Source: a virus. From it: a DNA stretch of 19,638 bases. The stretch is from the UHGV virus genome UHGV-0058544; one strand, given 5' to 3'. A program made the position numbers. This document shows positions 6,001-12,000 of the stretch, one piece after another (within the stretch, counting starts at the first letter, position 1; each line of letters opens with the position of its first letter).

Positions 6001-9000
6001 CATGGGAGAACGCACAGATCCCAACCAATTTTGGCGGCATTCGCGCACTGATGTCTAATGGGCTTGCCTCTCGTACGCAGGGGGCATTTGGCGAAACACT
6101 GACAGTCAAAACACAGCCAACTGTTACCTATAACGCAGTTAAAGACTCATACCAGTTCACTGTAACATTGACCGGAGCGACAGCCAGCGTTACAGGTTTT
6201 CTGAAAGCTGGTGATCAGGTTAAATTCACCAATACCTACTGGCTGCAACAGCAGACCAAACAGGCGTTGTATAACGGAGTCACACCAATTAGCTTCACTG
6301 CAACGGTTACTGCTGATGCTAATTCAGACAGCAGTGGCGATGTGACGGTTACGCTTTCTGGTGTTCCGATTTATGACACTACAAACCCGCAGTACAACTC
6401 TGTAAGTCGTCAGGTAGAGGCAGGCGATGCCGTATCTGTAGTAGGCACTGCTAGCCAGACAATGAAGCCAAACCTGTTCTATAACAAGTTCTTCTGTGGA
6501 CTTGGCTCTATCCCACTGCCGAAACTGCACAGTATTGATTCTGCTGTTGCAACATATGAAGGTTTCTCCATCCGCGTACATAAATACGCAGATGGCGATG
6601 CCAACGTGCAAAAAATGCGCTTCGACTTACTGCCTGCATATGTGTGCTTTAACCCTCACATGGGCGGTCAGTTCTTCGGTAATCCGTAATAACAAGGGGC
6701 TTACGCCCCTTTTATGTTTTAAGGAAACAATATGGATCGGATGAGTGTATTCCTTGCCGCAGATAACGAATCCGGGCATGTACAGGCCGTTATCGCAGAA
6801 AAAGACTTCCAGTTTTTCGAAAGGTTGGGCTTTGTTGCCTCAGTTGATGAATTGAAACCGACCAGTAAGCGAGGTCGTAAGGCGGCGGACAATGGCAACA
6901 GTACTGACAAAGGGTGAGATCGTCCTTTTTGCGCTTCGTAAGTTTGCTATTGCTTCTAATGCATCGCTTACTGATGTTGAGCCGCAATCAATTGAAGATG
7001 GTGTAAATGATCTGGAAGATATGATGTCCGAGTGGATGATTAACCCCGGCGACATTGGTTACGCTTTCGCAACTGGAGATGAGCAGCCATTACCAGATGA
7101 TGAGTCAGGTCTTCCAAGAAAATACAAACACGCAGTAGGCTATCAGTTATTGCTGAGAATGCTATCTGATTACAGCCTTGAACCAACTCCGCAAGTTCTC
7201 AGTAACGCCCAACGCTCATATGATGCCTTGATGACCGACACTCTGGTTGTTCCTTCAATGCGACGACGTGGAGATTTTCCTGTAGGGCAGGGTAATAAAT
7301 ATGACGTGTTCACATCTGACCGATATTATCCAGGCGATCTCCCTCTGATTGATGGCGATATCCCAAACGCATAGGTGAATAAATGCCTATTCAGCAACTT
7401 CCGCTTATGAAAGGTGTCGGCAAAGACTTTAGAAACGCCGACTATATCGACTATCTGCCAGTGAATATGTTGGCTACACCCAAAGAAATCCTGAACAGCA
7501 GCGGATATCTTCGCTCATTCCCGGGCATTGCCAAACGCTCTGATGTAAACGGCGTATCGCGCGGAGTTGAGTACAACATGGCGCAGAGTGCTGTTTATCG
7601 CGTGTGTGGCGGCAAGCTGTACAAAGGAGAAAGTGAAGTCGGTGATGTTGCCGGAAGTGGTCGCGTATCAATGGCGCATGGTAGAACATCACAGGCGGTA
7701 GGCGTTAATGGTCAACTGGTCGAATACCGCTATGATGGCACGGTTAAAACCGTCTCAAACTGGCCTACAGACAGCGGATTCACGCAGTATGAGTTAGGTT
7801 CAGTCCGCGACATTACACGCTTACGTGGGCGTTATGCGTGGTCAAAAGACGGTACTGATTCATGGTTTATCACTGACCCTGAAGACGAATCGCATCCTGA
7901 CCGTTACAGCGCACAATATCGCGCAGAATCGCAGCCGGACGGCATCATCGGTATCGGCACATGGCGAGACTTCATCGTCTGCTTTGGTTCATCAACGATT
8001 GAATATTTCTCCCTGACTGGTGCAACCACCGTTGGTGCGGCTTTGTATGTCGCACAGCCATCGCTGATGGTGCAGAAAGGTATTGCCGGAACTTACTGCA
8101 AAACGCCGTTTGCTGATTCCTATGCGTTCATCAGCAATCCGGCAACAGGTGCGCCGTCTGTGTATATCATCGGCTCCGGTCAGGTGTCACCAATCGCCAG
8201 CGCGAGCATTGAGAAAATCCTCCGCTCCTACACTGCTGATGAACTGGCTGATGGTGTGATGGAATCGCTGCGGTTTGATGCTCATGAGTTGCTGATTATT
8301 CACCTGCCGCGCCATGTTCTTGTTTACGACGCATCTTCAAGCGCCAATGGTCCACAATGGTGTGTGCTGAAAACGGGCCTGTATGACGATGTGTACCGCG
8401 CTATCGACTTCATTTACGAAGGCAATCAGATAACGTGCGGCGATAAGCTGGAGTCCGTGACCGGGAAATTGCAGTTCGATATCAGCAGTCAGTACGACAA
8501 GCAACAGGAACATATTTTATATTCTCCTTTAATAAAGGCAGATAACGTTTTAATAAATGACCTTGAATTAGAAACATCTGGCGGCGTGTGTGATAGAATA
8601 GATAGAATATTTATATCAGCAACTACAGATGGAATTAATTACGGTCGTGAGCAAATGGTCGTATTACAAAAACCATTTGTATATGACAATCGCGTTTTAT
8701 GGCGAAAAGTTGGTCGAGTTAGACGCCTCATTGGATTTAAATTCAGAGTTATTGCAAAAGGTCCTGTTACATTATCAGGCCTTTCTATTCGTGTAACATA
8801 AATCGAAACTAAAGGAGTAGATATGTTGAGTGAAAACGCAAAAGATATTCCTGGATATGAAGGTTTATATGCCGTAACAGAGGATGGGCGAGTATATTCT
8901 CACTCACGTGTTGTTAAGGCTGCGCATGGCAGCACGCAACTCAGAAAGGGTCGGTGGCTAAAACAACACGAGAATAATAAAGGTTATCTATATTTGCCAC

Positions 9001-12000
9001 TTAGTGTTGATGGAGTTAAAGTAAAATGGCTTGTGCATAGGCTTGTCGCTCTTGCTTTCGTCCCCAATCCAGAAGGCAAGCCGTTCATAAATCACATAGA
9101 TAACAACCGAAAAAATAATAATGCTTCTAATTTAGAGTGGTGTACTCAAAAGGAGAATATGAAGCATTGCTCATCTCAAGGCAGGGTGAAGTTTCCGGCT
9201 TTAAAAGGAGAAAATAATCCAATTTCAAAGCTCTCATATGAGCAAGTAATAGAAATAAAGAAATCAAAGGGAGTTAATCAAAGAGAGCTTGCTAAAAAAT
9301 ACTGTGTCAGTCAGACGGTGATTCACAATATCCAGTCTGGTAAATCGTGGAGGCATGTTAATGGCTGATTCGAATCTCAATGAGCCGGTAATCATCCAGG
9401 CTACGCGGCTCGACACATCAGTCCTTCCGCGCAATATATTCAGCCAGTCTTACCTGCTGTATGTCATTAATCAGGGGGCTGATGTCGGCGCAATTGCTGG
9501 AAAGGCAAATCAGGCTGGTCAGGGCGCTTATGATGCCCAAGTAAAAAACGATGAACAGGATGTCGAACTGGCTGACCACGATGCAAGAATCACCGCAAAC
9601 ACAAAAGCGATAAATCTCCTTGAGGTCAGGTTAACAACCGCCGAAGGGAAGATAGTCGTACTGCGTAGCGATGTTGATTACTTGCTGGATGAGGTTATCG
9701 ATATTCAGGCGCATCTGGTCACTGTTGACCAAAGACTGGATGACGTAGAAAACGATGTCTCTGGCATTAAGAGTGATTACGTATCGAAAACCGTAACAGA
9801 ATCGCAGTCTCTTGCGTCACCGCTGGATGTAAAAACATCATATTCAGTTGATGGAATTCAGGTCGTTGCAGCAAGGCAGACCGGATGGACGGCGGCCACA
9901 GGCACACCACTTCTTGGCTCATTCAACGCTAACCAGTCATACACTGTCGGCACTACGTACACGCAATCCGAAGTCGCAGCTCTCGCTACAGGTTTGCAGC
10001 AGGCGCGGCAGCGTATTCTGGCGCTTGAAACAGCACTTAGATTACATGGGCTGATTGACTGATGATTACATTCAAACCAACGCGAAACATCGACCTGATA
10101 GAAGCAGTAGGAAATCACCCTGACATTATTGCCGGAAGCAACAACGGTGATGGATATGACTACAAGCCTGAATGCCGTTACTTTGAGGTGAACGTGCACG
10201 GTCAGTTTGGCGGCATTGTTTACTATCAGGAGATTCAGCCGCTGACATTCGATTGCCACGCTATGTACCTGCCAGAGATTCGCGGCTTCAGCAAGGAAAT
10301 CGGGCTGGCGTTCTGGCGATACATTCTGACTAACACCACCGTTCAGTGCGTCACATCGTTCGCTGCACGCAAATTCCGCCACGGGCAGATGTACTGCGCA
10401 ATGATTGGCCTTAAGCGTGTAGGAACCATCAAGAAATACTTCAAAGGCGTGGATGACGTGACGTTTTACAGCGCCACACGCGAAGAACTAATCGACTTCC
10501 TGAATCACGGGAGATAGCCATGTTATATGCATTTAAGCTGGGCAGAAAACTGCGCGGCGAGGAACCTTATCGCCCTGAAAAAGGCGGGAAAGGTGGCAGC
10601 TCTGATAAAAGCGCAAAGTATGCAGCAGAAGCTCAGAAGTATGCCGCAGACCTGCAAAATCAGCAGTTCAACACCATCATGAACAACCTGAAACCGTTTA
10701 CTCCTCTGGCTGAGAAGTATGTCGGCAGCCTCGAGAACTTATCGTCTCTGGAAGGGCAAGGTCAGGCACTTAACCAGTATTACAACTCTCAGCAGTACAA
10801 AGATCTTGCTGGTCAGGCTCGCTATCAGAGTCTGGCGGCAGCGGAAGCAACAGGTGGATTGGGTTCCACTGCAACCGGTAATCAGTTAGCAACAATCGCA
10901 CCAACGCTTGGTCAGCAGTGGCTGTCTGGTCAGATGAACAACTACCAGAATCTGGCAAATATTGGTCTTGGCGCACTGCAAGGTCAGGCAAACGCCGGGC
11001 AGACATATGCCAACAACATGAGTCAGATTTCGCAGCAAAGTGCGGCTCTTGCAGCGGCAAATGCCAACAGACCATCAGCAATGCAATCTGCTATTAGCGG
11101 AGGTGCGTCTGGTGCTATTGCTGGGGCCGGACTTGCGAAATTAATTGGTTCATCAACTCCGTGGGGGGCTGCGATCGGCGGCGGTCTTGGTCTGCTTGGC
11201 TCGTTGTTTTAAGGGGTAATCAATGGCTACGTGGCAACAGGGTATTAATTCTGGTGGTTTTCTGGCTGGCATCGGTACGCAAAATGAGAATGCGCCAAAG
11301 GCAAGCGACATTAACGCAACGCTTGGTCTGATCCGCGAAAACAATGAACTGGCTCGCTCAGGTGTAAATAACGTTGGCCTGACCGCGTTACGTGGTCTGG
11401 CTGGAGTTGCTGATATTTACAATCAGGAACAGCAACAGAAAGCTATTAGTGCGTTCAATAAGGTTCACGCTGATGCATGGGCTTCTGGTGATCCATCGGG
11501 ACTATTTAAGTTTGCCCAGGAAAATCCAGCGTTTGTTGCACAGGCACAACAGGCGTTTTCCGGTCTTAATGAGCAGCAACGCAACGATATGGGCGATTTA
11601 GCCATGAGAGCTAACGTCGCTCTTTCTCAGGGACCGGAAGCCTACAGTAAATTCATTACTGACAACAAGGACAGGTTAAATCGCGTTGGTGCTAATGCTG
11701 ACTGGATGATTCAGACAGGTATCCAGAATCCAGAGCAGCTATCACACATGCTGACTACTATGTCTCTCGGTGCACTTGGGCCAGAAAAGGCGTTTGCTGT
11801 TCAGGATAAGATGGTTGGTCGCCAGCAGGAGCAGCAAAGAATTAACGAAACCATTCGCAATAATGACATGACGAATGCGAGGGCTATTAGGGGGCAGGAT
11901 CTTTCCTATAAGGCTCAAATGGCAAGACTGAATCACGACAAGTATGTGTTTAAGCAGTCACAGGCGGCCCTTGAAAGAGCAGGACAACTTCAGGATATGG

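Follow-up and report, generated by a model that had tools for sequence, protein, structure and literature searches.

The subject of this report is the junction between two tail genes, gp10 and gp26, in UHGV virus genome UHGV-0058544, where a gene for an HNH homing endonuclease lies next to an unusually AT-rich gp10 end. The whole stretch of DNA that we analysed, 19,638 nucleotides (nt) in length, is referred to as the window. Its tail genes follow the P22-type order, with gp4 at 6892-7374, gp10 at 7383-8801, an open reading frame (ORF) of 181 amino acids (aa) at 8823-9368, and gp26 at 9361-10062. The 472-aa product of gp10 matches the Pfam family Phage_stabilise (E=4.6e-282), and the gene has its own stop codon at 8799-8801. 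The preferred start of gp26 is the ATG at 9361 (MADSNLNEP..., a P22-like MAD... start), an earlier in-frame ATG being present at 9355; if gp26 begins at 9361, it overlaps by 8 nt the 181-aa ORF, whose stop codon occupies 9366-9368. The features of the locus are listed below.

7383-8513, plus strand: native part of gp10 (tail hub), codons 1-377; G+C content (GC) 0.51, GC at third codon positions (GC3) 0.53; Phage_stabilise
8483-8513, plus strand: left junction zone; native sequence up to 8510-8513 in the window, AT-rich from 8483 in other carriers
8514-8801, plus strand: foreign or recoded 3' end of gp10, codons 378-472 and stop; GC 0.34, GC3 0.18; 63% aa identity with the HK620 end
8802-8822, plus strand: spacer of 21 nt with the Shine-Dalgarno sequence AAAGGAG for the HNH gene, read from the sequence
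8823-9368, plus strand: free-standing HNH homing endonuclease gene, 181 aa, assigned from Pfam, the I-HmuI match and AlphaFold/Foldseek
8841-9002, plus strand: NUMOD4 domain, aa 7-60 (Pfam)
9030-9161, plus strand: HNH_3 domain, aa 70-113 (Pfam)
9237-9335, plus strand: helices of the helix-turn-helix (HTH), aa 139-171 (AlphaFold model)
9349-9368, plus strand: right edge of the cassette, with the GGAGG Shine-Dalgarno sequence (9349-9353) and the gp26 ATG (9361) inside the last HNH codons
9361-10062, plus strand: gp26 tail needle; start translationally coupled to the HNH gene, not to gp10

Boundaries and protein product of the cassette

The base composition of gp10 changes abruptly within the gene. 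GC is 0.512 at 7383-8512, 0.339 at 8513-8801, 0.392 at 8802-9360 (the spacer and HNH gene) and 0.500 in gp26, and GC3 is 0.532 in the native part of gp10 versus 0.177 in its end. Stretches of 289 nt that are equally AT-rich make up 1.9% of the 19.6-kb window (z=-2.6), the others being located in the immI/moron region and in the 3' part of the tailspike gene. Up to position 8512, gp10 shares 93-96% nt identity with HK620 and 683R2. When the gene is aligned with those of HK620, 683R2, and UPF_BP1, near-identity stops after ...CAGGAACAT, at codon 377 (CAT, 8511-8513), and beyond that codon identity is ~60% at the nucleotide level and 63% at the amino acid level.

At the right edge, the last codons of the HNH gene (TGG AGG CAT GTT AAT GGC TGA) include both a GGAGG and the ATG of gp26. 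Because the ribosome-binding site and start codon of gp26 thus lie within the end of the HNH gene, gp26 is coupled to that gene and not to gp10. Homology with phages that lack the HNH gene resumes at TAATGGCTGA, which corresponds to their own overlap of gp10 stop and gp26 start.

The 181-aa protein, which carries the RefSeq label "NUMOD4 domain-containing protein", matches two Pfam families above the gathering cut-off, NUMOD4 (E=2.4e-11, 44.1 bits versus a cut-off of 23.4) and HNH_3 (E=1.7e-10), and a third, HTH_3, below it (E=0.005). An AlphaFold model of the protein (predicted local distance difference test, pLDDT, of 90) has a beta-rich N-terminal part, an HNH core, and a three-helix bundle at residues 139-171. 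Foldseek returned I-HmuI (1U3E) as the sole significant PDB match (E=5.4e-9, full length, 182 columns, template modelling score 0.50-0.52); the two also match in sequence (E=2.3e-12), with H91, N103, and N112 aligned with residues of the I-HmuI HNH motif. Five residues (N90, H91, N103, N112, and H115) that are invariant in 54 homologues are present in the window protein. As modelled, then, the protein is a full-length structural homologue of I-HmuI; we infer its nuclease activity, the position of its cut, and its nuclease-driven spread. A scan for a promoter or terminator belonging to the HNH gene itself gave no more sites than did shuffled sequence.

A preliminary description of this DNA had reported a 181-aa protein with NUMOD4 and HNH motifs that is situated between gp10 and gp26 and overlaps the latter by 8 nt, and the ORF calls and Pfam confirm it. 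The C-terminal HTH included in that description is weak in Pfam and gains backing from the helices at residues 139-171 of the model and from the full-length alignment with I-HmuI. The same description had GC dropping from about 8510, inside the last ~95 codons of gp10, and recovering at gp26; windowed GC and the alignment agree and place the step at 8513/8514, between codons 377 and 378.

Three other identities for the inserted gene were considered and rejected. An endonuclease encoded in a group I intron does not fit, since no Rfam intron family was detected at 8200-9700 (E<=1) and both flanking ORFs are complete. A transposon or insertion sequence (IS) was rejected in that there are no terminal inverted repeats, no direct repeats or target duplication flanking the cassette ends, and no transposase. 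Finally, an HNH protein of the terminase-associated type (HK97 gp74-like) was rejected on the grounds that the gene sits between those for the tail hub and tail needle and is missing from about 93% of relatives.

Distribution, linkage and mobility

Among 129 phage records that match the region, only Escherichia phage HZ41 has a gp10-HNH-gp26 arrangement like that of the window; in HK620, CUS-3, IME10, Sf6, and most others nothing separates gp10 from gp26, whose stop and start codons overlap as TAATG. A similar rarity is seen in prophages, in which the AT-rich gp10 end occupies 52 of the 958 gp10 places (~5%) in 5,426 complete Escherichia coli genomes. These 52 carriers are matches of at least 95% identity, and extension of the match into the 5' end of the HNH gene is shown for 40 of them and inferred for the other 12. 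The window gene, which we term allele A, is found in 16 of the carriers, and about 36 have allele B, a 177-aa NUMOD4-HNH protein that is 50-55% identical to the window protein. The insert is thus far from universal in related phages and prophages.

The AT-rich gp10 end and the HNH gene are found together. A 24-mer specific to the AT-rich end identified 23 IMG/VR contigs, and all 22 that could be evaluated have allele A or B adjacent. We also scanned metagenomes with the gp10 end as the query, which yielded 80 loci unselected for the HNH gene. There, 7/7 AT-type ends versus 0/73 standard ends are followed by a NUMOD4-HNH gene (Fisher p about 3e-10, our own estimate); the gene is A, B, or a further allele, E, which is new and shows 58% identity. 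Of the 73 standard ends, 71 lead directly to gp26, one is followed by an unrelated HNH gene, and one by a 50-nt gap. An AT-rich or low-GC gp10 end lacking the endonuclease was looked for and found in none of the phages, prophages, and metagenome contigs examined.

Several lines of evidence indicate that the two parts move as a unit. The hosts of the cassette differ in GC and include Salmonella and Providencia. When HZ41 and the allele-A cassettes of 15 IMG/VR loci are compared with the window, cassette identity is 97-100%, except at L018 (95.5-97.1%) and L020 (88-90%), while the flanks are less similar: 90.6-95.1% in upstream gp10 (78.2% at L020) and 73-95% in the first 200 nt of gp26. In pairs of loci with 0-1 mismatch in the 844-bp cassette, the flanks differ by 5-20%. 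Reading outward from the cassette, the first mismatch comes after 10-61 nt on the left side and 26-35 nt on the right, so that the shared homologous flank tracts measure 10-61 nt on the left and about 13-28 nt beyond the HNH stop on the right. At ~5% flank divergence, we calculate the chance of a mismatch-free run of 844 bp to be about 1e-19, and the cassette is therefore far younger than its surroundings. Synonymous divergence (dS) from the divergent carrier L020 is three-fold lower in the cassette (0.51-0.57) than in the native part of gp10 (gp10N, 1.69). Furthermore, two gp4 types, one 99% and the other about 40% identical, and several gp26 types are found beside the cassette. The ratio of nonsynonymous to synonymous divergence (dN/dS) is 0.05-0.07 for the HNH gene as well as for the gp10 end, which places both parts under purifying selection; the nuclease is maintained and not decaying. 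These comparisons support the AT-rich gp10 end and the HNH gene (8514-9368) as one horizontally mobile cassette.

The claim in the preliminary description that gp10 is a chimeric gene is upheld, given the breakpoint at codon 377/378 and an AT-type end that is always tied to the HNH gene. It had named two findings as refuting, namely carriage of the gene with like composition by all relatives, and a low-GC gp10 3' region in phages without the endonuclease; neither was seen. Its further proposal, that the 3' end is a tract co-converted during homing, is supported with a refinement. The end is horizontally mobile and appears foreign; it is not a variable tract, however, but stays constant within the cassette, diverges together with the HNH gene, and keeps one left edge in very different backgrounds. 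True co-conversion of homologous flanks appears to be short.

The left edge does vary among some of the carriers. At five allele-A loci (L008, L011, L015, L016, and L018) and all of the allele-B loci the junction reads ATATCTTCACAATACGAAAAACAACAAGAGCAT, with AT-rich synonymous donor codons from 8483, and the junction of L020 is a third mosaic, for at least three left-junction variants overall (8513/14, about 8483, and that of L020). The left end point thus appears to have shifted in some lineages. At the distant carriers L152, L229, and L231, GC3 falls at the same codon as in the window, and gp10N at the latter two is 77-81% identical (aa). No association of single-nucleotide polymorphisms (SNPs) with cassette status was detected in gp10N between 7533 and 8482; a SNP signal at 7383-7532 is due to the presence of another cassette, HNH-C, in the comparison set. 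An attempt to locate the target in the HNH-less alleles from a stretch of unusual conservation at the nucleotide level was uninformative, the metagenome set being too diverse.

In HNH-less alleles (about 2610-2640 of L002, from HK620, equivalent to window 8496-8520), the breakpoint codons, Q-Q-E-H-L-L, read CA(A/G)CAGGAACACCTGCTG. They contain a 6-7-bp inverted repeat, CAGCAGG/CCTGCTG, with a 4-nt spacer, and this repeat is destroyed in the cassette allele (...GAACATATTTTA). Codon choice may have produced this repeat incidentally, or it may belong to a recognition site.

Several resident copies are interrupted. An IS3-family element lies in the HNH gene or spacer of ETEC6333/6334 (L006, E. coli ETEC6333, 2878-4300), an IS1 lies under the cassette match in E. 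coli M160133 (H129), and IMG/VR contig 2861079508_000003 (entry L019/L132) has an insert of ~800 bp that separates the gp10 end from the HNH gene. In some resident prophages the cassette is decaying.

Allele diversity, origin and the remainder of the window

The gp10/gp26 junction is occupied by at least four different HNH genes (A, B, E, and D), and the gp4 side of gp10 by a fifth (C). A C-terminal W(R/G)HVNG is retained in alleles A, B, and E despite overall identities of 50-58%. In B and E the gp10 end is nearly unchanged and the HNH core is very different, and therefore nuclease cores seem to have been swapped within a conserved frame. The similarity between alleles A and C takes in the spacer and ~140 nt at the start of the ORF, with nt identity of about 87%; in B no more than the initial ~41 nt are shared. 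The cores differ.

Allele C, a NUMOD4-HNH gene with 57% aa identity, is located between gp4 and gp10 in many P22-like prophages, and is preceded there by the same Shine-Dalgarno spacer. Examples are L004 (Salmonella phage UPF_BP1, 1384-2200), L023 (2360-3200), L012, L027, L043, and L148, and in the last four of these gp10 is bracketed by two related HNH genes. The layout at allele C mirrors that of the window cassette: the native first 93 nt of gp10 persist as a stop-ended remnant, followed by the spacer, HNH-C, and a recoded, AT-richer gp10 start (the first ~120 nt) that is fused to the standard gene.

The fourth, unrelated endonuclease at gp10/gp26 is present in vB_EcoP-683R2 (L003, 2922-3416). 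It is 164 aa in length, has an HNH_3 domain (E=4e-16) together with an AP2-like domain, and adjoins a standard gp10 end of normal GC; it is also present at L041 and L172, and at >=99% identity in 16 complete E. coli genomes. The product between gp10 and gp26 of this phage is entered in GenBank as "endolysin", and we correct its annotation here to HNH endonuclease.

The AT-type end forms the longest branch among gp10 ends of Enterobacterales P22-like phages, with aa identities of 52-68% to all other lineages, whereas HK620 and those lineages share 67-100%. In the search for a donor, the best non-cassette match among INPHARED phages by tblastn was 66%, GTDB representative genomes gave at most 68%, the metagenomes gave no matches between 68% and 93%, and only cassette carriers exceeded 68% in a set of 5.8 billion proteins. 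One match of 75% (L088), in which gp10 is split into fragments in the assembly, also has a NUMOD4-HNH gene adjacent. HNH homologues of 85%, 75%, and 68% identity are all located between gp10 and gp26, and the gp10 ends beside them are 86%, 89%, and 71% identical (aa), respectively; the HNH gene and gp10 end therefore appear largely to co-diverge. The last of these is a prophage of Providencia rettgeri (L227, CP109846.1, 856473-865015), whose locus has a GC of 0.44 with no step. Its gp10 end, the nearest that the donor search found, is itself within a cassette. The uniform GC of this locus hints at a low-GC source lineage related to phages of Morganellaceae, and the Providencia cassette would be the nearest lead to the lineage of origin.

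Elsewhere in the window, gp14, gp7, gp20, and gp16 are encoded downstream of gp26. Judged from 50-6700, the element in the window has the look of a deleted, defective prophage. An integrase gene (50-1120, minus strand) and early-left genes (Ea22-like, SSB) extend to about 5975, where they abut a coat gene that is without its first ~137 codons, and the match to other genomes begins at about 5828. Genes for immunity, replication, lysis, terminase, portal, and scaffold are missing from the window element. The junction between the integrase side and the coat gene was found in no complete E. coli genome. Two other stretches are strongly AT-rich, with GC down to 0.31: 14600-16205, which holds small minus-strand ORFs between gp16 and an antirepressor-like gene (P22_AR domains, 16363-17286), and 17901-19638, which is the 3' two-thirds of the tailspike gene (17465-19588). 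Both are probably other horizontally exchanged modules.

Proposed nuclease-driven homing, its rivals and known systems

We consider it likely that 8514-9368 is a single mobile cassette, composed of an I-HmuI-like homing endonuclease gene and the foreign, AT-rich last 95 codons of gp10, the essential tail-hub gene; the link to nuclease-driven homing we infer from the comparisons above. In the mechanism that we propose, a P22-like phage or prophage bearing the cassette would meet a cassette-less relative in one cell, and the enzyme would nick or cut the relative; the probable position is within or close to either the 3' end of standard gp10 or the gp10/gp26 junction. The cassette allele would be immune because it lacks the target sequence, and repair would copy it into the cut relative. 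The only homology within reach of this repair would be that preceding codon 377 and that at the conserved start of gp26. Since standard and AT-type gp10 ends are only ~60% identical, copying of the nuclease gene must also copy the recoded gp10 end, which explains the complete linkage. The operon would be kept working, as the cassette is predicted to bring a functional gp10 end, its own ribosome-binding site, and the ribosome-binding site and start codon of gp26. For the free-standing endonucleases of T4, the cut can be far from the nuclease gene, the intervening DNA is co-converted, and repair reaches beyond the heterology (PMC2988022).

Certain observations weigh against this proposal. The edge at codon 377/378 appears common to most lineages, even very divergent ones, and random conversion endpoints would not predict it; behind such a fixed edge there may be a cut site, the boundary of a protein domain, or the inheritance or reuse of one old junction. 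The phages, GTDB representative genomes, metagenomes, and 5.8-billion-protein set that were searched yielded no full-length AT-type gp10 donor. GC3 is lower in the gp10 end (0.18) than in the HNH gene (0.35), contrary to what a simple common origin predicts. The window copy resides in what appears to be a deleted, defective prophage and would be able to act only as a donor to incoming phages. Finally, P22-like phages are highly mosaic, and general recombination could move the segment without a nuclease.

A bolder form of the homing proposal is a cut-and-rescue drive, in which the nuclease targets standard gp10 near codon 377, the cut being marked by the conserved left edge, the recoded end serves as an obligatory, co-evolving module for both immunity and rescue and is no hitch-hiker, and HNH-C does the same in mirror image at the other end, the two together driving the tail-hub gene through P22-like populations across genera. 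We offer this version tentatively, as a possibility that we would not favor at present.

The main rival is ordinary mosaic exchange, in which the gp10 end and HNH gene constitute a module moved by general homologous or illegitimate recombination and the nuclease is a passenger, or has another role such as damaging co-infecting competitors. Mosaicism of gp4, gp26, and other neighbors in these loci is in keeping with such exchange, as is the low frequency of the module (about 5%); the left edge common to most backgrounds could be one old junction that recombination has reused, and interference between phages by an intron-encoded endonuclease is documented (PMC11620839). It accounts less readily for an extreme step in identity exactly at the cassette edges in many independent backgrounds, or for a nuclease that is intact under purifying selection, and the occurrence of A, B, E, and D at one junction with C at the other end of gp10 is the signature of endonuclease targeting and not of random mosaicism. 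We regard exchange of this kind as unlikely.

A second alternative is that the AT-rich gp10 end diverged in place, under AT-biased mutation, as an immunity allele that escapes cleavage in an arms race. It would account for the failure to find a full-length AT-type gp10 donor in the collections searched, for the longest branch in the tree, and for the large degree to which the gp10 end and HNH gene co-diverge. Loss of a 20-40 bp target, however, does not need ~40% nucleotide change over 288 nt, nor a 35% amino acid change in a protein whose conservation is about 90% elsewhere (PMC9728967). In addition, the fall in GC3 from 0.53 to 0.18 at a single codon is what a recombination joint looks like, and the P. 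rettgeri gp10 end (71% aa), without a GC step, suggests a low-GC source lineage. We judge divergence in place to be improbable.

That the HNH protein is instead a domesticated morphogenesis factor, aiding DNA packaging or head-tail joining as does the terminase-associated HNH of HK97-like cos phages, is hardly credible: the gene does belong to the late structural operon, with translational coupling to gp26, but it is missing from about 93% of closely related gp10-gp26 junctions (including those of P22, HK620, Sf6, and CUS-3), the terminase and portal genes are not adjacent, it is built like the intron endonuclease I-HmuI and has an HTH that reads sequence, and it is interchanged with unrelated HNH genes at the same site.

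Returning to the homing cassette, we see consequences beyond this locus. Homing endonucleases are best known from virulent T4-like and SPO1-like phages. Our results suggest that they also shape structural genes of temperate P22-like phages and prophages in E. coli, Salmonella, and Providencia. Conservation of gp10 in the group is otherwise about 90%, and about 5% of E. coli prophages have a deeply divergent, nuclease-linked C-terminal module; this bears on the choice of gp10 as a marker in phylogeny and on structural studies of the hub-adaptor interface. The locus lends itself to testing, given an isolated phage with the cassette (HZ41) and others without it (HK620, CUS-3, and Sf6). A full-text literature search found no description of the cassette, though an earlier description may still exist.

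The cassette belongs to a known kind, that of the free-standing homing endonuclease, with intronless homing as its probable mode of spread. At the protein level the closest comparison is with I-HmuI, the intron-encoded HNH nicking endonuclease of Bacillus phage SPO1, which has the same order of N-terminal beta-sheet/NUMOD4, HNH core, helices, and C-terminal HTH. The two are only ~28-31% identical, however, and the window gene is free-standing between genes and not in a group I intron, in a host that is a temperate enterobacterial podovirus.

In genetic organization, the window cassette is reminiscent of SegF, SegG, SegB, and MobE of T4-like phages, the agents of intronless homing and marker exclusion. 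There, too, the gene is located between essential genes, the neighboring allele differs from that of relatives without the endonuclease, and gene and flank are passed on together, since repair has to extend past the heterology into homologous sequence (PMC2988022, PMC2790892, PMC2330249). The enzymes themselves differ, in that the Seg proteins are GIY-YIG enzymes and the C-terminal domain of MobE is not the same. The T4-like systems also rest on crosses and cleavage mapping, whereas the case for the window cassette is comparative, and the T4-like flank consists of a few polymorphisms, whereas the cassette carries an unusually large recoded piece, a whole 95-codon gene end from a deeply divergent homologue.

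The work of Barth et al. (2023, PMC10448857) on homing endonuclease gene islands and domain shuffling, in ICP1 among other phages, likewise places nuclease genes at exchange boundaries by essential genes, although the unit described here is under 1 kb, versus over 10 kb for the islands, and comes from another phage group. Outside of phage biology, a nuclease tied to a recoded piece of its essential target gene is, by our own comparison, a natural parallel to engineered gene drives of the rescue type.

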